From contig CAYQWZ010000002.1 of assembly GCA_964421635.1 (NCBI GenBank), positions 1,749 to 65,748 of the forward strand: a DNA stretch of 64,000 nt, in the 5' to 3' direction. The notes under the pieces are model-generated. The model saw only the letters and a list, made by a program, of their open reading frames with translations. It had not been told where the DNA came from and did no database searches. A program made the translations under genes and the position numbers. Positions 3,753-37,166 of the stretch are shown here, piece by piece. This stretch comes from an uncultured Candidatus Saccharibacteria bacterium. GTDB taxonomy: Bacteria; Patescibacteriota; UBA1384; CAILIB01; JAUSJZ01. Each line of letters begins with the position of its first letter. Position 1 is the stretch's first letter.

Positions 3753-5519
3753 ATGAAGCGATTGTTATTTGTTTTTATTTATCTTTGGTTGTTTTGGCCG
3801 GTGAGCACTTTGGCGGCTGGTATTGGATGTGAATTTGATAACTACATTACCACTTTTAATTTAAACGAAGACAGCTCTGTTTCTGTAACGGAAAAAATTG
3901 ACTTAGTCTGCCAAGACTATAACGGCATGCATGGAATTTACAGAGTTTTGCCAACCGTTGCGGCGCGGCCAGATGACAATTATAAGTCAACTAAGGTTAG
4001 GCTGGTTTCAATTACAGACGCGGAAGGCAACACTTATGACTATTCAGCCACCAACTATTCAGACACAGTGCAGTACAAAATTGGTGACACAGATATAACA
4101 ATCGACCAGCCTGCAACTTACATCATAAAATATGAGGTGCAAAACGCCATCTTTTATTCAAGCGAATTGGGTAAGGATGTATTCAATTGGAATGTGCAAT
4201 CCTTTTTAAACGATTATGCAACCAACAATGTTGCTATTGAAGTTAATTTTCCAGTTGGGCTAGACGAGCAGAATGTTCATACAAATTTGTATAGTGGATA
4301 CGCTTCGAGCGAAGCTAATCCCTCTCAAGAGAACCCTTATGCAGAAATGTTTTGGAGCGAGAATAAATTAAATATTTTTAACACTAGCGCTTTGGGGGTT
4401 GAGCAGGGCATTACTTTATTCGCCACTTTCGACTCTGGAATTTTCACCTACTATCAGCCGACATTTTGGGAGCAGTACAGCTTACTTTTTCAAATTCTGA
4501 TTGCTCTTATTATTCCTATATTTGTCGGTCGCTATCTGTATGGCATTTGGCGAAAATACGGAGATGACCCAGATGTTGTCGGCTCCATTGCCCCAGCTTT
4601 TGCACCGCCTAAAAAATTGCGACCCTTGGAGCTTGGAATACTACAAAAAGCCACCCCAACGGTTGACAACCAATTAATCACCGCCACCTTAATAGATTTA
4701 GCTGTGCGCGGGTTCATTACCATTGAAGAAGTGAAAAAAGGGCCTTTCAAAACGAAGGATTGGATAATAAAATTAAACACCAAAGCTAAACCAAAAATTA
4801 AACAGCTTCGACCTTTTGAGCAAGAGTTTTTAAACATTATACTGTCGGATTCAAAGTTGAAAGATAACGACGGTAATCAGATTATGGGGGTAGAGAATTA
4901 TCTATCCGATTCTATGAAATCCTATGCGAAAAGTACTAACGCGGTAGCCAAAAAAGCCTTCGACACGCTTAAAGAAGAAGGATTAGTAGACAAGGAAGGC
5001 AAAAAGTATCAGGCTATATTTTTGGGAATTGGCATCTTTCTGTTAATCATTTCATTTCAAATTCTATTCTTTGTTCCGAGTATTGGTTTTGCAATGTTAA
5101 CCAGTGGCATTCTGCTAGTCGTTTTCGGCGCCATTATGCCCCGTCGTACTGAAGAAGGGTCGTTCCTTTATCATGAGTCAAAAGGATTTCAATTGTACAT
5201 GAAAACGGCGGAGAAATACCGTCAGCAGTTTTTTGAAAAAGAAAATATCTTTGAGAAATATTTACCTTACGCCATTGGCTTTGGTATTGTCTCGCAGTGG
5301 AAAAAGGCGGTAGAGAAACTGTATCCTAAGCAGATGAAGAATTATCATCCGGTTTGGTATGTTGGTAGCTCAAACTTTTCGGTTTCTTCTTTCACAAGTT
5401 CAATAAATTCTATTAGTAGTTCTGTTTCGTCGAGCGTGGCCAGCTCGGGCTCAGGTGGAGTTTCCGGCGGTGGATTTTCGGGCGGAGGTGGTGGAGGCGG
5501 CGGCGCTGGTGGTTGGTAA
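3753..5519 (+). CDS. DUF2207 domain membrane protein
   Basis: Signal/TM at the start (MKRLLFVFIYLWLFWPVSTLAA), internal TM segments, and a C-terminal Ser/Gly-rich tail ending GGGGGGGGAGGW typical of DUF2207. Confidence 0.7.
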   Translation: MKRLLFVFIYLWLFWPVSTLAAGIGCEFDNYITTFNLNEDSSVSVTEKIDLVCQDYNGMHGIYRVLPTVAARPDDNYKSTKVRLVSITDAEGNTYDYSATNYSDTVQYKIGDTDITIDQPATYIIKYEVQNAIFYSSELGKDVFNWNVQSFLNDYATNNVAIEVNFPVGLDEQNVHTNLYSGYASSEANPSQENPYAEMFWSENKLNIFNTSALGVEQGITLFATFDSGIFTYYQPTFWEQYSLLFQILIALIIPIFVGRYLYGIWRKYGDDPDVVGSIAPAFAPPKKLRPLELGILQKATPTVDNQLITATLIDLAVRGFITIEEVKKGPFKTKDWIIKLNTKAKPKIKQLRPFEQEFLNIILSDSKLKDNDGNQIMGVENYLSDSMKSYAKSTNAVAKKAFDTLKEEGLVDKEGKKYQAIFLGIGIFLLIISFQILFFVPSIGFAMLTSGILLVVFGAIMPRRTEEGSFLYHESKGFQLYMKTAEKYRQQFFEKENIFEKYLPYAIGFGIVSQWKKAVEKLYPKQMKNYHPVWYVGSSNFSVSSFTSSINSISSSVSSSVASSGSGGVSGGGFSGGGGGGGGAGGW

Positions 5520-6846: not shown

Positions 6847-7615
6847 TAATAGAGTCTAATGTGTAAACAAAATACAATCTGAATGTAGCGCGAAAAAAGT
6901 ATTTTTATTTTTTTCTCGCGCCAGACGGCGCGTTTTTGTTTCTCTAGGCATGAACATTAACAATTAATCTAATTAGTGGAATAATTATCACAATTATTCT
7001 TCCGATATAAAAAAGAAACGTAGAAACGCGTATTCATATTTACAAAAATGTAAGTCATTAATCATAATCTTCAAGCTAAGTTCGCTTAGCCTCAGAGATA
7101 GTGAGCCTCGCAAGAGGTCGAGTAAGAAATGACGTACGAGCACAAGGTGGATGCCTTGGTAGACACGACCGATGAAGGACGTCTGAGCCTGCGATAAGCT
7201 TCGGGGAGCTGGCAACAAAGCTATGATCCGGAGATTTCCGAATGGGGTAACCTATCTACTATATGTAGATGCTAGTGGGTGCGAGTCCCGCTAGACGAAG
7301 ACCTGGTGAACTGAAACATCTTATTAACCAGAGGAAAAGAAATAAATTAGATTCCGTTAGTAGTGGCGAGCGAACGCGGAACAGCCCAAACCACGTTTAT
7401 TAAATGTGGGGTTGTAGGGTAAAAGTGGAGATATCTCGTAGTGAAAAAATTAAGTTATATAACAGAAGGAACCTGGAATAGGACCGCCATAGAGGGTGAT
7501 AGCCCCGTATGTGAAATGTAACTTAACACTATGACTTTTAATCCTGAGTACCACGAAGCACGAGAAACTTTGTGGGAATCTGGGGCGATCACGCTCCAAG
7601 GCTAAATATAGTGTC

Positions 7616-7662
<47 letters not shown>

Positions 7663-8227
7663 GATGAGGGGAGTGAAATAGTATCCTGAAACCTTGATGC
7701 TTCCAAGCAAGTAGGAGCCGGCATGTCCGGTGACTGCGTGCCTTTTGTAGAATGCGCCACCGAGTTAGCCGTAGATTGCTGGTTAAGGCGATATTGCTGT
7801 AGCCATAGGGAAACCGAGTCTGAATAAGGCGAAATATAAGTAGTCTGCGCTAAACCCGAAACCGTGTGAGCTATCCATGACCAGGGTGAACCCTCTTTAA
7901 ACGGAGGGGGAGGCCCGAACCAGGAAGTGTTGCAATACTTTTGGATGAGTTGTGGATAGGGGTAAAATGCCTATCGAACACGGCAATAGCTGGTTCTCTT
8001 CGAAATATATTTAGGTATAGCCGTCAGTGTTCCTGCTTGAGGTAGAGCACTTAATGGTTGCTTTGGGTCTTCGGATCCGACACCAATAAAACTCCGAATT
8101 CAAGTTAGTCATAACTGACGAGTCAGACTGTGGGGGCTAAGCTCCATGGTCGAAAGGGAAAGAGCCCAGATCGCAAGCTAAGGTCCCTAACTAGTATCTC
8201 AGTGGAAAAGGATGTGTTATCTCCAAT

Positions 8228-8258
<31 letters not shown>

Positions 8259-9014
8259 TCCTTTAAAAAGTGCGTAAAAGCTTACTGGTCTAGCGGTTTA
8301 CCGCAAGAGATGATGCGCCGAAAATTTAACGGGGCTTAAGGTACTGGCCGAAGCTGCGAACTTGTTGAATTATTAAAATTTAGCGAGTGGTAGAAGAGCG
8401 TTCGTGTTGTTGTGAAGCAATACCTGTGAGGGGTTGTGGAACGGCACGAAGTGAGAATGGTGGCATGAGTAACGTTTCAGTCAGGTGAGAACCCTGACCT
8501 CCGAATATCCAAGGTTTCCTGGGCAACGAGAATCGACCCAGGGTTAGGCGGCCCTAAGGTGAACCCGAAAGGGGTAGCCGATGGACAGACGGTTAATATT
8601 CCGTCCCCTATTTTAGTGCAACTGTATGACGCATTTAGGTGGTAGCAAGTTCCAATGGGAATATCTTGCTGCGAACTGGGTGACTAGAAAAGTACAGGTT
8701 AAAGGCTAAAATGGACCGTACCGATAACCGACGCCGGTGGATAGGTCGAGTAGACCAAGGAGATCGGAAGAACCTTCGTTAAGGAACTCGGCAAAAAAGC
8801 GTCCGTAACTTCGGGATAAGGACTGCCAACCTAATTTATTAGGTAGGCCGCAGCGAAAGAATCCAGGCGACTGTTTAGCAAAAACACAGCTCCGTGCTAA
8901 CTCGTAAGAGGATGTATACGGAGTGACGCCTGCCCAATGCCAGAAGGTTAAGGGGAATGCTAACATTTTTTGAAGGCATGAACTGAAGCCCTGGTGAATG
9001 GCGGCGGTAACTAT

Positions 9015-9281
9015 TAAGGTTAGTAGTTATAAAATTTGGCCAAATGCTGGAAACTCTGAGTATCTTGCGCTACTATAGAATAAATACTAGTTCGGTATAT
9101 GTTCGGTAGTAAAAATGCGACAAGTGCAGACAATCAGCAGGAAAGACTCTCATATGAAAGAATCCTCAGAGACTATACGCCAAACTCCTGAATAGGAGAT
9201 GATATAGTCCGATCTGTATGGCGACATGCAGAGTTAGGCAGAAATGTCTAGCCCACTCAACTTGAGTGAGTAACAATAATG
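9015..9281 (+). mobile_element. Group-I-like intron 1 in 23S (ORF-less, ~267 nt), at about E. coli position 1917
   Basis: The exon sequence AACTAT|...|AACCGTCCTATGGTAGCG is interrupted. The 5' exon ends in U and the insert ends in G (the group I rule). Confidence 0.6.
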
Positions 9282-9315
9282 AACCGTCCTATGGTAGCGA
9301 AATTCCTTGTCGGGT

Positions 9316-9756
9316 AAATCAAGTCGGAAAAACTTGCCCGAAAGTTGCAGCAATGCAGCTTCAGTAAACTGGCTCAAAACGGTGAAGCCTAAAGTGGTTA
9401 ATCAAATTGTCATGCTGACGGTGCCACAATGGTAATACCGTGGGAAGTCTCTGCTTCGGCAGATGACCCCGTAACGACTGAGACGAAAGTCAAGACTCAC
9501 TACAGGTGGGTAATACGGCCAGCTCTTGCATAAAAAAGGATATATGAATTTTGCAGCTTACATTACCGGTTTCGTAGACGGAGAAGGGTGTTTCATAAAG
9601 AAACATTTGAATCCTCAAGTTTTAAAAGAAATCATTACGACTTCTTATAAAATGAACGATTCTGGGACAAGAAAGTTAAGCCAAGCAAAACTTCTAAGTA
9701 TCTTGTAAGATGAAGGTATAGTCTGATCCAACATGAAAGTGTTGTAACATTCAGTG
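9316..9756 (+). mobile_element. Group-I-like intron 2 in 23S (~441 nt), at about E. coli 1949-1951, carrying a LAGLIDADG remnant
   Basis: Exon CGGGT|...|AAGTTCCGACCCGCACGAATGGCG. It contains the shared core motif AATACCGTGGGAAGT...ACCCCGTAACGACTG closed by a UUCG-loop hairpin instead of an ORF. Confidence 0.6.
9526..9708 (+). pseudogene. Truncated LAGLIDADG homing endonuclease remnant (60 aa) inside intron 2
   Basis: A single LAGLIDADG motif (ITGFVDGEGCF). Too short to be a functional enzyme. Confidence 0.5.
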
Positions 9757-10304
9757 AAGTTCCGACCCGCACGAATGGCGTAACGATCTGGATACTGTCT
9801 CAACGAAGGATCCGGTGAAATTCCACTACCGGTAAAGATGCCGGTTAGATGCAGAAAGACGAAAAGACCCCGTGAAGCTTTACTATAGTTTGGCATTGTT
9901 GTATAACGATGTTTGCGCAGCATAGGTGGGAGACTTTGAAACTCTAACTTCGGTTAGATGGAGTCACCAGTGAGATACCACCTGAGTGTTGATATGCAAC
10001 TCACTCCCGGTTAAGACGGGAAGACAGTGTCTGATGGGTAGTTTAACTGGGGCGGTTGCCTCCTAAATTGTAACGGAGGCGTTCAAAGGTTTACTTGGCC
10101 AGGATGGAAATCTGGCAATAAAGTGTAAAAGCATAAGTAAGCTTGACTGCAAGACCTTCAAGTCGAGCAGATGCGAAAGCAGGATTTAGTGATCCGACAC
10201 TTACATGTGAAAGTGGTGTCGCTCAACGGATAAAAGTTACTCCGGGGATAACAGGCTTATTGCGCCCAATAGCCCATATAGACGGCGCAGTTTGGCACCT
10301 CGAT

Positions 10305-11226
10305 AATCCAAAGAAAGTCGAGAATAAAGTGACTCATAACGGTGGAGCCCTACTGTTTGTTCGGTAAATGTTTGGTATAATATACCAAATAATAGAATAA
10401 CAGGGGTAATACCGTGGGAAGTTACAAGACTGGCCATTATCAGCAGAATTGGTCTAAAATTAAAAGTTCGTTGTCGCTGAATAAACGACAGCAATCCTTA
10501 ATAATAGGCTCAATGCTTGGTGATGGCACTATGCGTATAGGCAAAAACGCAATTAATGCAAATTTCAAAGTGGAACAAGGCTTGAAACAAGAAGCTTATG
10601 TCTATTGGAAATATCGCATTTTGCATCCTTTTGTTTACACCGAACCAAAAATTAGCTATCGGTATGATAGTCAAGGGCAAAGATATCCAAAATCTTGGTG
10701 GTTTAGAACCATTAGATGCTCCCTTTTAACTGAAATATATAATCAGTTTTATACAGGAGAAGGATATCGAACAGGTAGAAAAATTGTACCTAATAATATA
10801 GTTAATTTTCTTGACCCATTAGCCTTATCAGTTTGGATAATGGATGACGGGTCATATAATAGAGGAAGAATAGATATTAGTACTTACTCATTTACTTTAG
10901 TGGAAGTAAAAATGTTAATAAGTGCAATATTTGAGAGATATGATATTCAAATGAATATGTATAAAGATCGTGATAAAGGCTATAGAATATATGCCAATCA
11001 AGATAATACTAAATCATTAATTGAAACAATCTCTCCGTTCATTATTCCTTCTATGAGGTATAAGGTGGGTTTTGTAACCCCGTAACGACTGGATCCTTAG
11101 TTCAGAAAGCTAAGGTGAAGATTCAGAATCTGAAACGATATATATTTCTGAATAACACGTCGCTGCTTGGACAACGCAGTCCAAGTAAAGGTATAGTCTG
11201 CACAGCTAGTAATAGTTGATAATGCG
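10305..11226 (+). mobile_element. Group-I-like intron 3 in 23S (~922 nt), at about E. coli 2504 in the peptidyl-transferase region
   Basis: Exon GGCACCTCGAT|...|GTCGGCTCATCGCATCC, with U before the intron and G at its end. Confidence 0.65.
10414..11085 (+). CDS. Double-motif LAGLIDADG homing endonuclease (223 aa, GTG start) encoded in intron 3
   Basis: Motifs LIIGSMLGDGTM and LSVWIMDDGSY. The ORF begins and ends inside the conserved intron core motifs. Confidence 0.85.
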   Translation: MGSYKTGHYQQNWSKIKSSLSLNKRQQSLIIGSMLGDGTMRIGKNAINANFKVEQGLKQEAYVYWKYRILHPFVYTEPKISYRYDSQGQRYPKSWWFRTIRCSLLTEIYNQFYTGEGYRTGRKIVPNNIVNFLDPLALSVWIMDDGSYNRGRIDISTYSFTLVEVKMLISAIFERYDIQMNMYKDRDKGYRIYANQDNTKSLIETISPFIIPSMRYKVGFVTP

Positions 11227-11290
11227 GTCGGCTCATCGCATCCTGGAGCTGGAGCAAGTTCCAAGGGTTTGGCTGTTCGCCAATTAAAGC

Positions 11291-11330
<40 letters not shown>

Positions 11331-11387
11331 ACTTAATCTTCTGTATCCGAGGAAGTTTGAGAGGGCTTCTCCCTAGTAAAACATTGC

Positions 11388-12152
11388 TACTTCACGAAGT
11401 AATTCGTGTTGACAATGCGGCTCATAACGGTGAAACCTTCATTATTGGCTGGTTAATACTAAGAACGTAACATAGTTTGGTCCAAAATTTGTTACAATGC
11501 TTGAGGACCAGAAAATATTAAGGCAATACCGTGGGAAGTCAATCTAATGTTAGATTTTCATATATAGCAGGTTTTCTTGATGGTGACGGGAGTTTAATGT
11601 TACAAATTAAACAACGTCCCAAAACAAAATCTGGGTATAGGTTTATGGCTACTATCTGTTTTTATCAAGATACGCGTCATGAATCTGGGCTTGTATGGAT
11701 CCAAAAAGTTCTAAAAATAGGTTATTTAAGTCGACGCAAAGATGGAATAACTGAATTAAGGATTAATGGGTTTACTCAAGTCAATGAGATATTAATAAAA
11801 ATATATCCATATATTCAATTTAAGAAAATTCAAGCAGAAGCATTAATTGAAGCAACGAATATCTTAAAAGATAAGAATGTAAATCAATTATGTGAAGCTG
11901 AGCTAGAAAGAATAGTAAAACTTATAATATTGTTAAGAAAACATAATTATAAGAGTAGCTATCGAAAAAGCTTGGTTAGTATAAGAAAAACATTAGGTTT
12001 GACCCCGTAACGACTGATCGAAAGAGAGAGTACATATTAATGTGCTAATACGCCGACTCCAATCAAAAAAGCTACAAAGATGGTTAATTAACCTAAATTT
12101 GAGTGATTGGATGAAAGTATAGTCTACGCCTTTAGAAATAAAGGATTTCGTG
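11388..12152 (+). mobile_element. Group-I-like intron 4 in 23S (~765 nt), inserted in the sarcin-ricin loop region (CCTAGT|ACGAGAGGACCGG)
   Basis: Exon continuity, a U...G boundary, and the same core motif family as introns 2 and 3 (CTCATAACGGTG..., AATACCGTGGGAAGT, ACCCCGTAACGACTG). Confidence 0.65.
11531..12010 (+). CDS. Single-motif LAGLIDADG homing endonuclease (159 aa, GTG start) encoded in intron 4
   Basis: Motif IAGFLDGDGSL. The size is I-CreI-like. Confidence 0.85.
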   Translation: MGSQSNVRFSYIAGFLDGDGSLMLQIKQRPKTKSGYRFMATICFYQDTRHESGLVWIQKVLKIGYLSRRKDGITELRINGFTQVNEILIKIYPYIQFKKIQAEALIEATNILKDKNVNQLCEAELERIVKLIILLRKHNYKSSYRKSLVSIRKTLGLTP

Positions 12153-12420
12153 ACGAGAGGACCGGGAGGAACGTGCCTCTGGTGTACCAGTTGTCATCCC
12201 AATGGCATCGCTGGGTAGCTACGCACGGCTAGATAAGCGCTGAAAGCATATAAGCGCGAAGCTAGCCTCAAGATTAGACTTCATAGATCCCTGGCAGACT
12301 ACCAGGTTGATAGGCACTAGGTGTAAGTGTGGTGACACACTCAGCCGTGGTGTACTAATAGATCATTTCATTTCTTACTCATAAAACTCACTAGTATTTA
12401 GTGAGCTCACTATCTCTGAG

Positions 12421-12452
12421 AAAAAGACCCCTATTTTTAGGTGGTCTTTTTG
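12421..12452. terminator. Hairpin plus T-run terminator downstream of the 23S 3' end (aaaaagacc...ggtcttttt)
   Basis: Seen: 9-bp stem, A-run on one side and T-run on the other (bidirectional-looking). Preceded by the 14-nt perfect palindrome TAGTGAGCTCACTA at 12399-12412. Confidence 0.45.
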
Positions 12453-12539
12453 TTTAGCGAAATCTCTTGATAATTAGTAGGATATCAGATAGAGTAGTTT
12501 TTAATGGGTGCGAATTCAGGGAGGAGAGAGGTGAGATGC

Positions 12540-12905
12540 ATGTCTGAAACAGTAGTACGGTTGGGGGTCAGAGTTCACTGCCAACTACTCGGAGGTGGTG
12601 GCTCTGCGCCAAAAGCCATCGCTGGCGAGTTTCGCGTGAACAGCGATGGCGAGCTGGCTGATGACAACGAGGTGCAGAGAGCCATCAACGCCCAAATCGG
12701 CCAGGTGGTTGAGGATTGGGTGCGTATACACAATGTCAATGTGGCTACGCTTGTGGTCACCGGTGGCGGCATGCGCATCTGCAACGGGGAGATCGAAGTC
12801 AGAGGAGAGCCACCGCAAGCGGTGGCGGACAGCATCCGCGCACTGCGCCAGCAGGAGGAGGTCAGGAATGCCGAGAGGCAGACCCTTCTCCGCGCATTGG
12901 GGTGA
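12540..12905 (+). CDS. Hypothetical protein (121 aa) in a ~63% GC island inserted between 23S and 5S
   Basis: ORF 12504..12905, with an ATG at 12540 after GGGAGGAGAGAGGTGAG (a strong RBS) and followed by a strong terminator. Opposite-strand and other-frame ORFs in this island are GC-driven shadows. Confidence 0.5.
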   Translation: MSETVVRLGVRVHCQLLGGGGSAPKAIAGEFRVNSDGELADDNEVQRAINAQIGQVVEDWVRIHNVNVATLVVTGGGMRICNGEIEVRGEPPQAVADSIRALRQQEEVRNAERQTLLRALG

Positions 12906-12954
12906 ATGGCGTTCCTGCCTGACTAGTCCAAGAATCTTTGCCTACGAGACCTAC

Positions 12955-12986
12955 GAGCGCGCCCTTCGGGCGCGCTCATTCTTTTG
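12955..12986 (+). terminator. Rho-independent terminator GAGCGCGCCCTTCGGGCGCGCTC followed by a T-run
   Basis: Seen: a perfect 10-bp GC stem, a UUCG loop, then TTCTTTTGT. Confidence 0.75.
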
Positions 12987-13006
12987 TCAAAATTTTCAAT
13001 ATTGCC

Positions 13007-13035
13007 TTGACAAACGGCTCAACATAAGGTAAATT
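13007..13035 (+). promoter_or_regulatory. Candidate sigma70-type promoter for the 5S rRNA (TTGACA-17nt-TAAATT), predicting a TSS at ~13043
   Basis: Seen: a consensus -35, a 17-nt spacer and an AT-rich -10 ending 8 nt before the 5S 5' end. Confidence 0.5.
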
Positions 13036-13043
13036 AGCTAATG

Positions 13044-13163
13044 TCTTGGTGATTTTAGCGGTGGGGGTACACCCGTTCTCATTCCGAACACGGAAGTTAA
13101 GCCCACCAGCGCCGATGGTACTTGCCGGGAAACTGGCCGGTAGAGTAGGACATTGCCAAGGCA
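13044..13163 (+). rRNA. rrf: 5S rRNA
   Basis: Conserved CCGAACACGGAAGTTAAGC core and a length of about 120 nt. Confidence 0.85.
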
Positions 13164-22922: not shown

Positions 22923-22951
22923 TTGACAAAAAGGATTATTTTTGCTAATAT
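22923..22951 (+). promoter_or_regulatory. Textbook sigma70-type promoter TTGACA-17nt-TAATAT upstream of the GC-rich secreted-protein gene
   Basis: Seen directly. Followed by the RBS GGGAGAAGGAGGA and an ATG at 22995. Confidence 0.5.
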
Positions 22952-22994
22952 TTGGTCAGCTTCGAACCTGAACACAAGGGAGAAGGAGGACGAC

Positions 22995-24212
22995 ATGCGG
23001 CGATACCTGATTGCGACACTACTGGTGCTGGCGGTGCTGGCACCGACACAGGCGGTCGATCCGGTCGAGTGGCTGATGCGACAGACTGGCGCTCGCAGTC
23101 CCGAAGAGTTGGTGGTTGATTTGGCTATCGACACCACTTTTTCCGGATTGATCGAGAAGTGTGAAATCAAGAACCCAAAGGTGAACGCGGCGTTTGATTG
23201 CGCCTTGATTGGACGCGGCGCACCGGTTGGGATTGTTCCGGCTGTGTCTGACCTGCGACGCGAAGAACAGGTCGAGCGAGCGATGGCTGAGATGCTGGGG
23301 CTTGACCCGCGTCTTGCTTTACAGAAGTTGAAAAGTGATGAAGATAGAGATCTCTCGGTCAGTGGCCCCCTGACTGCTTCTTTGATGCAAATGGGCGCTC
23401 TGGTGGTAGCAACGCCGAGAGAAGTGGAAAGAACGAGCCGAGAGCGGGCGGCGGATCGCAATAATGCGGAAGTCCGTCCTGGCTCTGTAGCGCCGCCCGC
23501 TACCATTGAGCGAGCTATCTACTATCTCGTTTGGGTCTTCGAGCCGTTGGCTGGCTTTGAGTACAACGAGTGGTATCAGCTTCTTACTCAGCGCAATGTC
23601 ATCACCTTGACATCAGAGCTGCGCGTGGCCATTAAGCTGGCCGATACAGACGTAACGGTGGCGTACATTACCATCCCTATCGAAATCCGCGAAGTGGGTG
23701 CCAACCGTGACCGCGGTCGGAGCCGACAGTACGCTTCACCGTTTCTGCATGCCATGCTGCGCAAGGCTTCTGACTATTTGGGTCAGATGTTGCATCGAGA
23801 GAATACTCTCTTGGAGCAGCTAGTGGTCGGCAAGTATCGTTATGATCCGGCGGCGGCTTCGACAATCGCTGCTGGTGAAGAAGCGGTTGAGCCTGTTTGG
23901 CCAGTGGTGTCGGGGCAAGTCCGTCCCAAACTGGTTCCGGCTCAAGGCTTGCCCCGACACCGAGTCATCGCCCAGCTAACTGGTGGCTTGACGCTCATCA
24001 GTGCAGGGCGAGCAGACGGATTGCGTGAAGGAAGCGCTGTACAGGTTGGCGGTTATGGTTTCAGCGTCTTCCGAGTAGCTGACAGCTACGCTTTCATTGT
24101 GGCCACCTCTGATAGCGTAGGAGCGCGTGAAGCGTTGCACTACGATGTGCCGGTTCAATTCATTCCGGTCGTCGAGCCGGTACCGGCACAAACTCCGGCA
24201 TCAACAGACTAG
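22995..24212 (+). CDS. Secreted hypothetical protein (405 aa) encoded in a ~60% GC island
   Basis: N-terminal signal peptide MRRYLIATLLVLAVLAPTQA. Strong RBS, consensus promoter and a strong terminator. The opposite-strand ORF 22874..23506 is a shadow. Confidence 0.6.
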   Translation: MRRYLIATLLVLAVLAPTQAVDPVEWLMRQTGARSPEELVVDLAIDTTFSGLIEKCEIKNPKVNAAFDCALIGRGAPVGIVPAVSDLRREEQVERAMAEMLGLDPRLALQKLKSDEDRDLSVSGPLTASLMQMGALVVATPREVERTSRERAADRNNAEVRPGSVAPPATIERAIYYLVWVFEPLAGFEYNEWYQLLTQRNVITLTSELRVAIKLADTDVTVAYITIPIEIREVGANRDRGRSRQYASPFLHAMLRKASDYLGQMLHRENTLLEQLVVGKYRYDPAAASTIAAGEEAVEPVWPVVSGQVRPKLVPAQGLPRHRVIAQLTGGLTLISAGRADGLREGSAVQVGGYGFSVFRVADSYAFIVATSDSVGAREALHYDVPVQFIPVVEPVPAQTPASTD

Positions 24213-24294: not shown

Positions 24295-24672
24295 TTAAAG
24301 ACTACCAGGATTTGAAGCGATGTTGACAACCGTTTGTGCAATCACAACTGCCAAAACAGTAATCACAATACCGACGGCGCCATAGACTAATCCTTTTTTT
24401 GCCTCAGTATATTTCTCTTCGTTGCCGCCAGCGGTAATCATTTTGTATCCGTTAAGACCAGTAAAAACAATGGCGTAAATAGTGGCTAAAGTGAAAAGTA
24501 ATGTTAAAAGATTTAAAAGGATTACTTTTATTTCAACATCTGGGGAAAAAAAACGGTTAATATCAAAAATATCTTTCCAGTCATCATCGGTAACCTGAGC
24601 TTGTGCTTTAAGAGGAACGAGAAAAGATAAATAGATTATTAGTTTGGTAAATTTTTTCATTAGACAGTTCAT
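24295..24672 (-). CDS. Pilin-like small membrane protein, paralog 1 (VirB2/T4SS-pilin-like topology)
   Basis: Signal peptide, then two hydrophobic helices with the conserved loop motif ITAGGNEEK...AKKGLVYGAVGIVI shared across the array. Confidence 0.5.
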   Translation of the reverse strand: MNCLMKKFTKLIIYLSFLVPLKAQAQVTDDDWKDIFDINRFFSPDVEIKVILLNLLTLLFTLATIYAIVFTGLNGYKMITAGGNEEKYTEAKKGLVYGAVGIVITVLAVVIAQTVVNIASNPGSL

Positions 24673-24965
24673 ATTCCTTGAGCAGCGTTTATAACTGCGC
24701 CAACCATTACATACATTAGGGCTATTACTACTAAACCGACAATGGCGTAGGTAATCATTAGTTTAGCCTTTGTAGTTTTTTCGTCGTCTCCACCGGCGGA
24801 AATATAGGTGATGCCAGCTGATACTATTACCACAATGGCTGAAACAGTCGCAATGTATAAGAAAAGATTAATAAATAAATTAAACACCTCATTGGGGGAG
24901 TTTACAGTAAACCTAGGTAGAGTACCAAAGATGTTAAATTTTTCAAAATCATCTGTTGCTGCCAT
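24669..24965 (-). CDS. Pilin-like small membrane protein, paralog 2
   Basis: ISAGGDDEKTTKAKLMITYAIVGLVVIAL motif; 4-nt overlap with its neighbour. Confidence 0.5.
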   Translation of the reverse strand: MAATDDFEKFNIFGTLPRFTVNSPNEVFNLFINLFLYIATVSAIVVIVSAGITYISAGGDDEKTTKAKLMITYAIVGLVVIALMYVMVGAVINAAQGI

Positions 24966-33034: not shown

Positions 33035-33186
33035 GGTGTTTTTTTACAGCAGCTGGGGAGTAATCCTTTAGCGACTGTCTAAGCTTTATTCTAACTGGTT
33101 AGGATTTTGGGAGCAAATGGGTCCTTAATGAAATTATAGGATTATAAGAGTACTATTTCGACGGTAATAATCGACTCCAAAACAGG

Positions 33187-33215
33187 TTGACAAACCTGTT
33201 ATATCCTGCTATGTT
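33187..33215 (+). promoter_or_regulatory. Promoter-like TTGACA-17nt-TATGTT overlapped by the inverted repeat AACAGGTT...AACCTGTT, upstream of the DGR target gene
   Basis: Seen directly. The palindrome arms lie at 33181-33188 and 33193-33200. Confidence 0.45.
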
Positions 33216-33290
33216 AGTCACGATCTAAAAGGATCCATCCATGTCAGCTAGGAATAGGCCTACGCTCACATGTATGCAGGAGTGAACAAA

Positions 33291-34277
33291 ATGCAACGGG
33301 AACCAATGTCGGAAGGCGACTTGGCAGACGCCAAGCGCATACTGACTCAACCCCTGGAAGGCGTCAGCCACGAGGGGTGGCAGTTGCTCAAGACGCGGCT
33401 CAGTGGTGTCATGCAGCAGATCGGCGACATCGGCCGCGCGGTGGAGCAGGAGCTGAAGATCCAGCAACTGCTGGGTAAGTCCGTCCTGCCCCTGACCGCA
33501 CTGCCCGAGGGCGGTTACTGTCGGGCCAACACGTCGTTGGTCTACGACTTGACCAACCGGCTGAGCCTTGACGAGCGGTTCGACCTGCTGGCGGTGCTGA
33601 TGGGCAATTTCGGCATCGACCGCTCCCAGCTCGATCTGGGCGTCGCGCCCGAGGGCGAATCCGGCTGGACGACCATGCTGACGGTTAACCCCGTCAACCT
33701 GGCCACGAAGCTGGGTCTCTCGGTCGTCCTGTCCGGCCTCGACAACGCCAAGAAGGTCGCTGCGGCCGCTACGGCGTACTGCCAGATGGTTGGGCCACTG
33801 GTGCAGAATCTGCCCAAGGCTCGGCCGACGGTCAGCGACTGGCTGCAGGGCCGGCTGGAGAGCGACTACATACTGCTTGAGCCGACCGCTGGTCAGCGCT
33901 GGCAGAACGTGGCCGTGCAGGAGCCGAACCGACCGCTCGTGGTGCGCCAGATGCGGTGCAATCCTGCGACCTGGTTTGCCAACGAGAGTGCGATCTACTC
34001 CCTGTCGCCGGACAACGTCTGTCACTTCACGGCGACCGATGTACAAATCGGCGACCTAGTGAATTTCGCCTGTCTGGCGGTCACCGAACCCTGGGTCTGC
34101 CAGGGCATCGCTGCGGGCACAGCGCCCCGGATCGACATTTCCGGGTGCCGCGTGTTCGACGATGACGGGTGGTCGGACTCGCCGTACTGCTGCCAGGGCG
34201 ACGATGGGGCATGGCTCAACTGCCATTGGGCTGACGATGCCAACGGCGACTACGGTTCGTTGCTCCTCCGGGAGTAA
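33291..34277 (+). CDS. DGR target (variable) protein. GC-rich (~62%), no signal peptide, with a Cys-rich variable region at its C-terminus.
   Basis: ORF 33270..34277, with the ATG at 33291 preceded by AGGAG. The last 40 codons coincide with VR. The opposite-strand ORF 33225..34046 is a shadow. Confidence 0.75.
   Translation: MQREPMSEGDLADAKRILTQPLEGVSHEGWQLLKTRLSGVMQQIGDIGRAVEQELKIQQLLGKSVLPLTALPEGGYCRANTSLVYDLTNRLSLDERFDLLAVLMGNFGIDRSQLDLGVAPEGESGWTTMLTVNPVNLATKLGLSVVLSGLDNAKKVAAAATAYCQMVGPLVQNLPKARPTVSDWLQGRLESDYILLEPTAGQRWQNVAVQEPNRPLVVRQMRCNPATWFANESAIYSLSPDNVCHFTATDVQIGDLVNFACLAVTEPWVCQGIAAGTAPRIDISGCRVFDDDGWSDSPYCCQGDDGAWLNCHWADDANGDYGSLLLRE
34152..34271 (+). repeat. DGR variable repeat (VR) at the 3' end of the target gene
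   Basis: A ~120-nt near-copy of TR (34628-34747). All ~17 mismatches fall where TR has A (A to G mostly, also A to T and A to C). Confidence 0.85.
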
Positions 34278-34304
34278 CTTCGGTCTTCGGAACTCGAACC
34301 CTTG

Positions 34305-34318
34305 GTCCGCTCGGACCT
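34305..34318 (+). promoter_or_regulatory. GC-rich hairpin GGTCCGCTCGGACC ~30 nt downstream of VR. A candidate DGR target-recognition hairpin, absent downstream of TR.
   Basis: Seen: a 5-6 bp GC stem with a 4-nt loop in the GC-rich segment right after VR. Confidence 0.4.
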
Positions 34319-34627
34319 TGGAAACTGGACTCGCGGTCGTGCTGACGAAAGTCGGCGCGGCCGCGTTTTACATTTAGCATGTAGCGCTCGACTTGGTTCT
34401 TGAAACAAGTTACAATTAATCTTGATATTAGGTCAGTGAGCGGCAATTTAAGGATTTCCGTCACCGAAATCACGCTTCTGCCATTCAGCAGAGTTGAATC
34501 ATCTACGGATGTTTCAAGCGTCAAGGCAGTAAGGGTACTCCGTACTCAATCCAAGAATAACGCAAAATAAATAGACAGGTAGTAGATAGTACTTTGCTAC
34601 CAGTGACATAGATAGGGTTGGGTGCAA

Positions 34628-34747
34628 GTGTTCAACGATGACAAATGGTCAAACTCGCCATACTGCAACCAGAACGACGATGAGGCATGGCTCAACAACA
34701 ATTGGGCTGACAATGCCAACGACAACTACGGTTCGTTGCTCCTCCGG
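34628..34747 (+). repeat. DGR template repeat (TR), non-coding and Asn-codon-rich (translates to VFNDDKWSNSPYCNQNDDEAWLNNNWADNANDNYGSLLLR)
   Basis: Matches VR except at A positions. 10 of the 12 variable codons are AAC/AAT in TR. Followed by a stop and no ORF. Confidence 0.85.
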
Positions 34748-34754
34748 TAGTACC

Positions 34755-35123
34755 TTAGCTCAAACTTCGTATCCATCCTCCAAGCATCTTGCCGATCTCC
34801 TGCAATTGCTCCTGGAGGGTGAGATACTTAGTCATATTTAAACATTTTGTTTCGTAAGCTAAACGAACTAACAGCTTAAGCAGGTCAAGTTTGGCGCTTA
34901 GTGGTAAGAGTTGTTGTTTGCGCAAACCTTTTGGTAGACTATTAGTCAACAACAATCCTTTGAGCAAGCCTAAAGTTGTAGTCTGTAGTCTCTCACCTAG
35001 TGAATAACGTTCAACTTTCGGAAAAAGATGAATCCACAAATGCAACTGCCGATAGAAATCGAACAACTTCCCGACAATAGGAATGGGGGTAAAGCTGTCG
35101 GGGGGGGTATTCTTGGTAGTCAT
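34755..35123 (-). CDS. Avd-like accessory variability determinant (four-helix-bundle / 23S rRNA IVS protein family)
   Basis: LFPKVERYSLGERLQ...LSAKLDLLKLLVRLAYETKCLN...LQEIGKMLGGWIRSL matches the four-helix-bundle (TIGR02436-like) pattern to which Avd belongs. Opposite strand to TR and RT; its 5' end overlaps the RT2 start region. Confidence 0.6.
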   Translation of the reverse strand: MTTKNTPPDSFTPIPIVGKLFDFYRQLHLWIHLFPKVERYSLGERLQTTTLGLLKGLLLTNSLPKGLRKQQLLPLSAKLDLLKLLVRLAYETKCLNMTKYLTLQEQLQEIGKMLGGWIRSLS

Positions 35124-36170
35124 TTTAATATCAGTTTTGAGCGAGTTATTTCTTTAGAGAATTTGATTACAGCTTGGTATGAATTTCGTCGTGGCAAGAG
35201 CAAAAGAATCGACGTTCAACAATTTGCCAACAATCTAGAAGATAACATATTTGCCCTACATAACCAACTTAAAAATGGTTTGTATAAACACGATCATTAC
35301 AGTCAATTTAATATTAACGACCCCAAACCTCGTCTGATCAGCAAAGCTACTGTTAAAGACCGTTTGGTTTACCACGCCCTTTACAGGGCGCTTTATCCTT
35401 TATTCGACAAGACATTTATTTACGATTCGTATTCCTGTCGCAAGAACAAAGGAACGCATAAGGCTTTTCAACGTTTAAGAAAATTAATTTTGTCTTGCAG
35501 TCAGAACTACACCCAACCGTGCTTTGCACTCAAATGTGACATTTATCGCTTCTTTGATTCGATTGATCACAATACTTTGCTTAGTCTAATTGCTAAAAAA
35601 GTACATGACTCGAAACTACTGTTACTTATCAAAAACATCATTGATAGTTTCGAAACTTCTTCTAGTAAAGGTATGCCAATTGGCAATCTTACTTCCCAAC
35701 TCTTCGCTAACATTTATATGGATCCACTAGATAAGTTTATTAAACACAGATTAAAAGCCAAGCATTATCTTCGCTATGCCGATGACTTCTTGTTATTATC
35801 TAACTCACCAACAGTTCTTCATGGTTATCTCAAAGAGATCAACGCTTTTGTGCAAGATAGGCTGAAACTCAAGTTGCATCCTCATAAAATTAGTCTACGA
35901 AAACTGTCTTGGGGAATTGATTTTGTTGGTTATGTGGCTTTGCCTTATCAAACTAAGCCTAGAAACAAGACTGTTAAAAGAATATTTAAGAAGATTGAAG
36001 ATAATATTTACCACGAAAATATTGACGCGACGTTTAATTCTTATTTGGGTTATTTACAACATGCTGATTCAGAAGATCTGCAATTAGCACTTTTAGACCG
36101 CTGGAAATCGGTATCCCACACCGGTTATGGTAATAGATTATTGACTGACCATCGACCTTTTTACAGATAG
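35028..36170 (+). CDS. Reverse transcriptase, DGR-type (RT2)
   Basis: Motifs FIYDSYSCRKNKGTHKA, MPIGNLTSQLFANIYMD ([I/L]GxxxSQ) and YADDF. Adjacent TR/VR pair. Confidence 0.85.
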   Translation: MNPQMQLPIEIEQLPDNRNGGKAVGGGILGSHFNISFERVISLENLITAWYEFRRGKSKRIDVQQFANNLEDNIFALHNQLKNGLYKHDHYSQFNINDPKPRLISKATVKDRLVYHALYRALYPLFDKTFIYDSYSCRKNKGTHKAFQRLRKLILSCSQNYTQPCFALKCDIYRFFDSIDHNTLLSLIAKKVHDSKLLLLIKNIIDSFETSSSKGMPIGNLTSQLFANIYMDPLDKFIKHRLKAKHYLRYADDFLLLSNSPTVLHGYLKEINAFVQDRLKLKLHPHKISLRKLSWGIDFVGYVALPYQTKPRNKTVKRIFKKIEDNIYHENIDATFNSYLGYLQHADSEDLQLALLDRWKSVSHTGYGNRLLTDHRPFYR

Positions 36171-36294
36171 ACTTTGTCGTGCACAAACATTTACTCCAGA
36201 GAAGAAAGCTGGACGATTATATAATGTAAAATGACCGTCTGAACATTGCATATTACTGTGCTACTAGACGGGTCATTTGTTTTTTCCAAATTAT

Positions 36295-36371
36295 TGGTAC
36301 GCCTGACAGGATTTGAACCTGTGACCTTCGGCTCCGCAAGCCGACGCTCTATCCAACTGAGCTACAGGCGC
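36295..36371 (-). tRNA. tRNA-Arg (anticodon GCG as folded by hand)
   Basis: 77-nt cloverleaf with an encoded CCA. Anticodon loop TTGCGGA. 7-bp acceptor stem and T-arm GGTTCAAATCC. Confidence 0.65.
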
Positions 36372-36377
36372 AAAAAA

Positions 36378-36470
36378 TGGCGGAGGGTGTGGGACTTGAA
36401 CCCACAAGACGGCAATTAAACCATCTACGGTTTAGCAAACCGCTGCCTTACCAATTCGGCGCAACCCTCC
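36378..36470 (-). tRNA. tRNA-Ser (anticodon GCT), long variable arm
   Basis: 93 nt, anticodon loop TTGCTAA, encoded CCA, T-arm GGTTCAAGTCC. Confidence 0.7.
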
Positions 36471-36565
36471 ACAGGTGTCTATATCCTATTATATAGCTTC
36501 ATCATTAATACCTGAAAAACGGGCATTATTCAAGCGCCCAAAGCCCAAAAAAACAAAACAAGAGA

Positions 36566-37051
36566 TCAAAATTTAATTATTCGGTTGATAGTATCTGAGA
36601 AAAATTCTGTTCGTCTGTTTTCTTCGGGTAAATAACGGCCAATGACATCGCGCACTTTGTCGATTTCTTGATCTTGTATTAAGGCTGAGACAGGCGTGCC
36701 GACCCCTTTTCTATCAAAATCTATAGTGACATAATCGGCGTGATCGGTAAGATGGAACGATTTAAAATCTTCATAAGAGTGCTCATTATCTCCAATAGAA
36801 AAAGATTCCGGACCAATTTTTATCTGTATAGTTTCGGGCTTTTTAAAAGAAATTTTATATAAAGCAAAAGCGCCAACAACAATCATCAAAATAGTTGTCC
36901 AGTCTAATCCTTTAGCAAAATAAAGGATTACAAGCGCAATAACCACGACAATGCTGATATTCAAAAACCAGCTACCAGACTTTTTATAATAATAAAACTC
37001 TGGCGCTCGCCAAGATAGGGTGGAAACGGGTTTAGAATTACTTGCTGCCAT
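36566..37051 (-). CDS. Hypothetical membrane protein (two TM helices, C-terminal soluble domain)
   Basis: ORF-track ORF with hydrophobic segments IVVVIALVILYF and ILMIVVGAFALY. Confidence 0.5.
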   Translation of the reverse strand: MAASNSKPVSTLSWRAPEFYYYKKSGSWFLNISIVVVIALVILYFAKGLDWTTILMIVVGAFALYKISFKKPETIQIKIGPESFSIGDNEHSYEDFKSFHLTDHADYVTIDFDRKGVGTPVSALIQDQEIDKVRDVIGRYLPEENRRTEFFSDTINRIIKF

Positions 37052-37076
37052 CTGGAATTATTATAGCATTTTTATT

Positions 37077-37166
37077 TGGCGGAGAGGGTGGGATTTGAAC
37101 CCACGAGACGCGTGAACGCCTACCGCTTTTCGAGAGCGACCCATTCAACCACTCTGGCACCTCTCC
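37077..37166 (-). tRNA. tRNA-Ser (anticodon CGA), long variable arm
   Basis: 90 nt, anticodon loop CTCGAAA, encoded CCA, T-arm GGTTCAAATCC. Confidence 0.65.

Follow-up and report, generated by a model that had tools for sequence, protein, structure and literature searches.

A 64-kb stretch of DNA from an uncultured Candidatus Saccharibacteria bacterium, referred to here as the window, very probably carries an intact diversity-generating retroelement (DGR) at positions 33187-36170. The element is of the type found in the candidate phyla radiation (CPR)/Patescibacteria, with the gene architecture known as B3. Read along the plus strand, the cassette consists of a target gene that contains the variable repeat (VR), a leader, the template repeat (TR), the accessory gene avd, and the reverse transcriptase (RT) gene; avd alone is on the minus strand. 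All of its open reading frames (ORFs) are intact, and each DGR component that can be judged from sequence is in place. We describe the anatomy of this element, its relatives, and 3 features that recur among them: a structured RNA that abuts the 5′ end of TR, a poly-G tract inside avd, and a GC excess of the target genes. The clade is already catalogued, and the cassette enlarges it by one DGR whose target family had no annotation before, which is useful and unsurprising; the extras that it has in common with its relatives matter more than the cassette itself.

The relationship between TR and VR is the central evidence. A repeat finder run on the window detects a direct repeat of 134 nt (34152-34285 and 34628-34761), with an offset of 476 and an identity of 84%. 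Within it, an ungapped comparison of the 120-nt cores (TR, 34628-34747; VR, 34152-34271) gives 18 mismatches and no gaps, and all 18 fall on TR adenines: A>G 15 times, A>T twice, and A>C once. The TR core contains 36 adenines in 120 nt, such that the hypergeometric probability of finding all 18 mismatches on adenine is 8.4e-12. Ordinary gene duplication would not be expected to put 18/18 differences on a single base of one copy. The initial annotation had recognized the near-identical pair at these positions and the confinement of its differences to TR adenines, and both observations hold. Its count of about 17 differences was 1 short: the codon changes that it listed are all present, and it had missed the silent changes tca>tcg and cca>ccg and one aac>gac.

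Mismatches at TR bases other than adenine are confined to the final 14 nt of the repeat (34272-34285 versus 34748-34761), the first being T>G at 34272, with C>A, A>C, and C>G also present. They are preceded by ctacggttcgttgctcctccgg, an identical, adenine-free, GC-rich stretch. This sequence pattern is the layout expected of an initiation-of-mutagenic-homing site (IMH) in VR and its counterpart (IMH*) in TR. By analogy with BPP-1 and with Wu et al. 2018, we assign ctacggttcgttgctcctccgg and the divergent tail that follows it to an IMH-like VR 3′ end at 34250-34285 on the plus strand. TR spans 34628-34761 on the plus strand, with its core at 34628-34747 and IMH* at 34726-34761.

VR (34152-34271, plus strand) encodes the 40 residues ahead of the terminal Glu of the target protein (residues 288-327 of 328). 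In the VR frame, TR has 21 recodable codons: AAC (8), AAT (2), and AAA, GAY, GAG, CAG, and TAC. The richness in AAC and AAT that the initial annotation pointed out is thus real, at 10 of the 21. The TR adenines are distributed over codon positions 1, 2, and 3 as 11, 21, and 4. A stop codon can be reached by adenine mutagenesis from only 1 TR codon (AAA), and the reachable peptides number approximately 1e19. TR is intergenic and outside any conserved ORF; it is overlapped only by a 67-aa ORF in a different frame (34638-34841), which is probably spurious. The 64-kb window has no other match to TR, which implies a single target.

The RT gene (35028-36170, plus strand) encodes 380 residues, including PIGNLTSQLFAN and YADD; the first 33 residues or so form an extension that overlaps avd. 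A start downstream of this overlap was considered and rejected, since there is no in-frame ATG, GTG, or TTG between residues 5 and 46. In a phmmer search of the PDB, the best match is 8ub7_A, a 328-aa DGR reverse transcriptase (E=4.8e-49), which aligns from residue 34 and places PIGNLTSQLFAN on PIGSLTSQLFAN and YADD on YMDD. By tblastn, the brt gene product of BPP-1 is 33% identical to the window RT. The motif set reported in the initial annotation, PIGNLTSQ and YADD, is present in full, and together with the nearest PDB relative it identifies the protein, at the level of sequence, as an RT of the DGR clade.

An alternative account of the locus would place a different retroelement RT, from a group II intron, a retron, or a defence system, next to an ordinary partial gene duplication. 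We give this account almost no chance of being correct. Its support comes from general family models: the RT matches the generic Pfam domain RVT_1, and its top NCBIfam model is group_II_RT_mat (TIGR04416) at 148.8 bits. That score is half of the cut-off of 300, however, and the best group II intron RT in the PDB search (E=3.8e-25) is 24 orders of magnitude behind the DGR enzyme. A group II intron RT/maturase was accordingly rejected, as Rfam also detects no flanking intron RNA. Retron or defence-associated RT (DRT) identity was rejected as well: the retron St85 model scores 61 bits against a cut-off of 235; Drt2, Drt3, and Drt5 are far under their cut-offs; and an Rfam search around the RT (33100-36300, E up to 1) finds no intron RNA and no retron or DRT non-coding RNA. 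The presence of Avd argues against another RT, and the ungapped TR/VR alignment, with every difference on one base (P = 8e-12), argues against duplication.

The DGR reading is further supported by avd, which encodes the accessory variability determinant (34755-35123, minus strand, 122 aa) and whose stop codon abuts or overlaps the 3′ end of TR. With 61.6 bits, Avd exceeds the cut-off (40) of the Pfam family bAvd (PF22296), in agreement with the Avd-like gene proposed initially. An exact look-up of a 94-aa version of the avd call retrieved no record. The ORFs of avd and RT, which lie on opposite strands, have 96 nt in common; the initial annotation was right about this arrangement and wrong to call it unusual. 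B3, defined as TR-(avd)-RT with a reverse-strand avd, constitutes 90% of the CPR DGR set (Wu et al. 2018, NAR 46:11), and all close relatives that we fetched have it, so the orientation is the norm of the lineage and no oddity. A DGR clade restricted to Patescibacteria has also been described (clade 2; Roux et al. 2021). In gene order, strands, and CPR-like context, the window resembles both the B3 elements of the former study and clade 2 of the latter, and the cassette is a further example of a known CPR-type B3 DGR. It differs from the surveyed CPR B3 DGRs in its tiny unannotated target family; the high GC of the target, the structured RNA 5′ of TR, and the poly-G tract were not found in the texts of these surveys.

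Comparison with BPP-1 (mtd-avd-TR-brt) reveals a similar core in a different arrangement. The 2 elements have in common adenine-specific transfer, the RT motifs (at 33% identity), Avd, and, on the target side, a 3′-terminal VR, an IMH-like end, and a GRNA-looped GC hairpin. In BPP-1, avd is reportedly co-directional and upstream of TR, and the priming element, Sp, is said to lie 3′ of TR. In the window, by contrast, avd sits in inverted orientation between TR and RT, antisense avd forms the 3′ flank of TR, and a conserved structure lies 5′ of TR; the hairpin has a 15-bp stem and lies 47 nt from VR, and the mutation spectrum of the clade is 62% A>G.

The target gene (33291-34277, plus strand) encodes 328 residues; the ORF also opens at an ATG at 33270. 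Its GC content is 0.64, rising to 0.82 at third codon positions (GC3). The family is very small and unannotated, with 11 clusters at 50% identity and no Pfam match, and is found in B3 DGR contexts only. A structure model of the target is weakly C-type-lectin-like, and the C-terminal, putatively ligand-binding face is probably of this kind; the C-type-lectin-fold variable proteins of other DGRs (Treponema TvpA, Mtd) are among the nearest known systems. A search of PDB sequences with the target returned nothing, as did a BFVD fold search, and a metagenome scan with target-derived peptide patterns gave 599 pattern matches, of which 0 were confirmed. The protein has no obvious signal peptide.

Relatives of the cassette extend these observations. 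The RT is present at 100% identity on 4 assembled contigs; their sequence, including VR, equals that of the window for as much as 17 kb. For L005, the closest distinct relative considered here, identity to the window is 59% for the target, 65% for RT, and 71% for Avd. Of the 3 target homologues looked up, 2 adjoin an RT, with identical order and strands (L005, and L012, whose CPR contig measures 949 kb); P0003, the third, is on a contig too short to show this. VR and TR are spaced by 476-546 nt in L005 and L012, and the same gene order occurs in approximately 20 metagenome relatives of the RT. The nearest named relatives of the RT (44-47% identity) belong to Yanofsky-, Buchanan-, and Nomurabacteria and to another Patescibacteria metagenome-assembled genome. 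In L005, the whole cassette is bracketed by an 88-nt direct repeat (5404-5491 and 8551-8638; 74% identity) that duplicates the 3′ end of the M23 peptidase gene, a hint at insertion of the cassette in one piece.

Adenine specificity is evident across the clade, and diversification in one sister element. Related loci, 17 in number, supplied 18 TR/VR pairs; of the 320 differences in these pairs, 313 fall on TR adenines. The spectrum at template adenines comprises 194 A>G (62%), 81 A>T (26%), and 38 A>C (12%); the skew toward A>G may come from the enzyme or from selection. A sister DGR recovered from 2 samples (L024 and L025) has 11 differences over 2833 nt, all of them inside VR (2327-2425 in L024, 772-870 in L025) and at TR adenines. 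As these differences are solely at adenine-templated VR sites, the clade diversifies in nature.

The wider surroundings are CPR-like, with DUF4012, genes resembling pilins of the type IV secretion system (T4SS), and a 23S rRNA gene with a group I intron. T4SS-like genes (TrbC/T4SS pilin, TraC-like, AAA_10/TraG) are found near the DGR, at 24295-24965 in the window and upstream of it in L001, and at 390-4862 in L005. The 23S rRNA gene spans 7124-10378 with its intron at 8960-9231, and the 5S rRNA gene follows only at 13045 (region 7124-13161). The gap of approximately 2.7 kb between them contains a LAGLIDADG endonuclease ORF (11531-12010) and a GC-rich ORF of 133 aa.

Several elements that flank the coding regions are predicted from sequence patterns. 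Upstream of the target is a sigma-70-like promoter, TTGACA-17-TATGTT with a TG extension (33187-33215, plus strand), which scores 10/12 in a consensus scan and would serve the target. Downstream of VR, DNA folding predicts a small hairpin, GGTCC-gctc-GGACC (34304-34317, plus strand), with a counterpart in L005. It is followed by a GC-rich inverted repeat with a 15-bp stem, a GAAA loop, and TTTT (34332-34369, stem-loop 34332-34365, plus strand), which a terminator scan and folding both identify. We consider this repeat a candidate for the hairpin or cruciform by which DGRs recognize their targets; it is terminator-like for the target as well. The loops of DGR target hairpins are 4 nt long with the consensus GRNA (Guo et al. 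2011); the GAAA loop fits, and GC-rich GRNA hairpins occur in a minority of DGRs. Beyond the terminator, 2 overlapping promoter-like sites, TCGACT-17-TACAAT and TTGAAA-18-GATATT (34388-34429, plus strand), emerge from the consensus scan, lie in a region conserved in L005, and may drive the TR RNA.

A number of observations weigh against an intact DGR. Avd scores 74.5 bits with the NCBIfam model DivGenRetAVD, just below the equivalog cut-off of 80, and its PDB sequence search returns only a spurious match. The putative target hairpin begins 47 nt beyond the end of TR/VR homology, versus 4-34 bp reported in phage DGRs. Antisense avd occupies the place 3′ of TR where BPP-1 has its priming spacer. 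Finally, the heterogeneity of VR between strains that the initial annotation led us to look for was not seen: the 3 assemblies that cover VR (L001, L002, and L004) are 100% identical to the window, VR included, and are perhaps not independent. A look-up through the neighbouring orf161 added contigs, none of which has a different VR or extends to the poly-G tract.

The last of these observations bears on a rival in which the element is inactive: the TR/VR differences would be the fossil of past homing, and VR would not be diversifying in the present population. The identity of VR in all covering assemblies favours this rival, as do the many related loci with avd out of frame at the poly-G tract, such that silent states are common in the clade. 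Set against it, a single population or project may be the source of the identical assemblies; the RT, avd, and target ORFs run their full length, YADD is retained, and the register of the tract keeps both avd and RT in frame. The 120-nt core has 0 non-adenine mismatches, where a decaying pair would gather some, and the between-sample changes of the sister element are limited to VR. On balance we judge an inactive element unlikely and favour an intact DGR that is presumably still able to diversify its target.

The non-coding segment between the target terminator and TR holds the first of the shared features. This conserved leader (34431-34627, plus strand) has a predicted RNA fold of -56.9 kcal/mol (z = -2.5). 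Over the 260 nt from the terminator to TR, the window and L005 reach approximately 80% identity, above the coding regions, whose proteins are 59-71% identical. The consensus fold derived from a 19-locus alignment consists of a long-range helix, P1, whose 3′ strand ends a few nt before TR, and 1 or more internal hairpins; in the window it occupies 34534-34629 on the plus strand. RNAalifold applied to the 19 loci finds compensatory changes in 21 of 24 pairs.

A covariance model of this structure, R1, was built from a seed of 15 sequences. It has exactly 1 match per source in 29 sources (28 related loci and the window), 14 of them outside the seed. All matches are on the RT strand and end at the start of TR, and there are none elsewhere in 327 kb. 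R1 has no match in the archaeal locus L010 or in the non-CPR bacterial locus L011. In the model-fitted alignment, 94.5% of cells pair, versus 63% after shuffling and 37-49% after sliding, and 17 of 20 pairs covary; these pairing figures are somewhat inflated, since the alignment was fitted to the R1 model itself. Rfam, which includes the RT-1 to RT-19 motifs, has no match to this RNA.

The position of the domain invites comparison with the Bordetella element, where the RNA needed for priming reportedly lies on the other side of TR. In the clade studied here, the 5′ domain may bind the RT-Avd complex or set the point at which cDNA synthesis stops. As a tentative proposal, one part of a joint reading that we weigh below, the clade would use a structured 5′ RNA domain in place of, or besides, a 3′ spacer of the Bordetella type.

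These elements can be combined into a model of how the cassette would work. A plus-strand RNA would begin near 34430, with a structured leader of approximately 200 nt followed by the 134-nt TR, and would probably continue through antisense avd into the RT gene. RT and Avd would copy TR into cDNA with misincorporation opposite template adenines, mostly A>G in the clade. The cDNA would then replace VR at the 3′ end of the target, within a segment bounded by the IMH-like end, and the downstream GC-rich hairpin with its GAAA loop would probably assist in this replacement. The outcome would be a 328-aa protein with up to 21 recoded codons (approximately 1e19 peptides) on a C-terminal face that is probably C-type-lectin-like.

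The second shared feature is a homopolymer inside avd. In the window, a G8 tract (35100-35107) encodes Thr-Pro-Pro on the minus strand, as avd codons 6-8, and Gly-Gly-Gly on the plus strand, within the N-terminal extension of RT. The 64-kb window has no other G or C homopolymer that reaches 7. A tract occupies the same site in at least 17 of 30 related loci, with lengths of 7, 8, 9, 10, or 12 and the conserved context ccgtt-Gn-...GTTAAAAGTCAT, in which CAT is the reverse-strand avd ATG. Its positions in relatives include L005 7429, L007 3919, L012 7870, L020 189, L022 1897, L027 159, L034 18, L036 3967, L037 1300, L038 4007, L040 4003, L058 2054, and L059 95.

The length of the tract varies between otherwise nearly identical genomes. 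L034 (G8) and L037 (G9) differ by 0 mismatches and 1 gap over 3284 nt, at the tract only; L058 and L059 are near-identical contigs whose tracts differ; and the L014 contig terminates within the tract. Among 16 tract-bearing loci, avd is full length from the conserved ATG in 4 (the window, L007, L037, and L059) and out of frame in 12, and in all 12 a one-base change restores an ORF of 120-137 aa. In the tract-less loci, 14 of which were screened, 13/13 recovered avd ORFs are intact. The ATG and the peptide segments on either side of the tract are conserved, and short tracts of G7-G9 are also found out of frame. In the window, avd is in frame at G8 only (modulo 3), and the in-frame ATG of RT is kept at both G8 and G9; several relatives have an RT start beyond the tract. 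It is therefore mainly Avd that the tract would gate.

Contingency loci that undergo phase variation through poly-G/C tracts are known in Neisseria, Haemophilus, and Campylobacter. The avd tract resembles them in being a G/C homopolymer just inside the 5′ end of an ORF, in varying in length between near-identical genomes, and in leaving ORFs that are otherwise intact in the out-of-frame states. It differs in that it resides in the accessory gene of a mutagenic retroelement and so, as judged from sequence, would gate a second, targeted mutator. The pattern is thus a candidate contingency-locus signature or, alternatively, a candidate site of +1 frameshifting on CCC-C; states of the G10 type could be read through by such frameshifting on the proline run. 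In a tentative reading, slippage at the tract would turn Avd on and off in populations, and mutagenic retrohoming along with it. We found no paper that links DGRs to homopolymeric phase variation.

The third feature concerns base composition. The mean GC content of the window is 40%, versus 64% from the target start codon to the terminator (33291-34365). The GC3 of the target (0.82) is the highest of 53 window ORFs (median 0.335), and that of RT is 0.34. Its codon choice is like that of a high-GC organism (CTG, CGG, GGC, GTC), and its amino acid usage is shifted as well, with Lys at 2.4% versus 7.9%. Across 22 related loci compared, 18 have a target whose GC3 exceeds that of RT by +0.2 to +0.4. 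Targets with GC3 of 0.57-0.88 occur within AT-rich genomes in L005, L007, L008, L017, L018, L022, L024, L030, L036, L038, L043, L045, and L046; avd, like RT, keeps the composition of the host in these loci. The loci with the excess have unrelated target C-termini, and one target is inverted and remote, while RT tracks host GC throughout. The exceptions are L006, L011 (not CPR), L012 (host GC 0.54), and L040 (only +0.13). The excess is not a general DGR trait, an option rejected because it is absent from 3 phage DGR regions and from L011 and L012.

Several causes of this excess were considered. Adenine mutagenesis spreading over the whole sense strand was rejected: at four-fold sites outside VR, A falls to 0.10, T is depleted alongside it to 0.19, and C is the most enriched. 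A single recent transfer is insufficient, since synonymous divergence of the window from L015 or L012 has reached saturation and yet every member of the target family is GC-rich, and since the family occurs only in such DGRs. Candidate causes are throttling of a hypervariable protein by rare codons, GC-biased conversion, and recurrent replacement out of a pool not yet seen. With the same reserve as for the other 2 features, we propose that targets are held approximately 20 GC points over the genome by a persistent force, which could be codon-choice selection or GC-biased conversion.

Immediately downstream of RT, on the other strand, are 3 tRNA genes (36295-37166; Arg-GCG, Ser-GCU, and Ser-CGA), and the 2 tRNA-Ser genes have in common a 34-nt segment, 88% identical. 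The possibility that these tRNAs serve the rare codons of the target was rejected, as the dominant Arg CGG and Leu CTG codons are not read by any of them. The target is not the sole compositional island, because the window contains 2 more GC-rich orphan ORFs. One (22923-24212; 429 aa, GC3 0.58) has a hydrophobic N-terminal segment and lies beside the T4SS-pilin-like genes; the other (12504-12905) has 133 aa and a GC3 of 0.66. Both lack a Pfam match, do not match TR, and bear no resemblance to the DGR target, and the island at 22923-24212 was rejected as a second target for lack of a TR match and its dissimilarity to the target.

Taken jointly, the 3 proposals, that poly-G slippage gates Avd, that the 5′ RNA domain takes part in the mechanism, and that the GC content of targets is actively maintained, form a reading that we put forward at somewhat under an even chance. 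The competing view holds that these extras are not DGR biology: the tract would reflect homopolymer errors, with Avd starting downstream of it; the target would be a recent foreign gene; and the RNA would be a promoter or attenuator. Homopolymers are indeed error-prone, such that error may underlie the length differences, the L014 contig stops within its tract, the gene caller starts avd of L012 past the tract, and the 2 GC-rich orphan ORFs show that such composition is found elsewhere in the window. Errors alone, however, fit poorly with intact avd in every tract-less ORF recovered versus 12/16 tract-bearing loci out of frame, each one base away from an ORF of 120-137 aa. They fit poorly as well with a conserved ATG and peptide on both sides of the tract, and with out-of-frame states at lengths of only G7-G9. 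A recent foreign gene is at odds with an excess in 18/22 loci with unrelated target C-termini and an RT that tracks host GC, and with its persistence through saturated synonymous divergence in a family confined to B3 DGRs. The leader helices have compensatory changes in 17/20 pairs. We regard this competing view as rather unlikely.

The GC excess of targets, the 5′ structured RNA, and the poly-G tract are undescribed in the full texts of the DGR surveys searched, Wu et al. 2018 and Roux et al. 2021 among them (3 surveys for the GC excess); Paul et al. 2017 was not covered. Among the extras, GC-rich targets and the RNA domain 5′ of TR are robust and apparently undescribed regularities of the clade. 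Mechanistic work on DGR RNA is not known to extend beyond the Bordetella element, which has its priming spacer on the 3′ side of TR; the presence of a covarying 5′ domain in the commonest CPR architecture suggests a different RNA organization where DGRs are most abundant. A target GC3 of 0.8 in a genome with a GC3 of 0.34, repeated across loci, is a compositional anomaly, and it could provide a simple marker for locating DGR targets in CPR genomes. For the control of DGR activity in cells, a slippery avd tract would offer a concrete and testable on/off mechanism.

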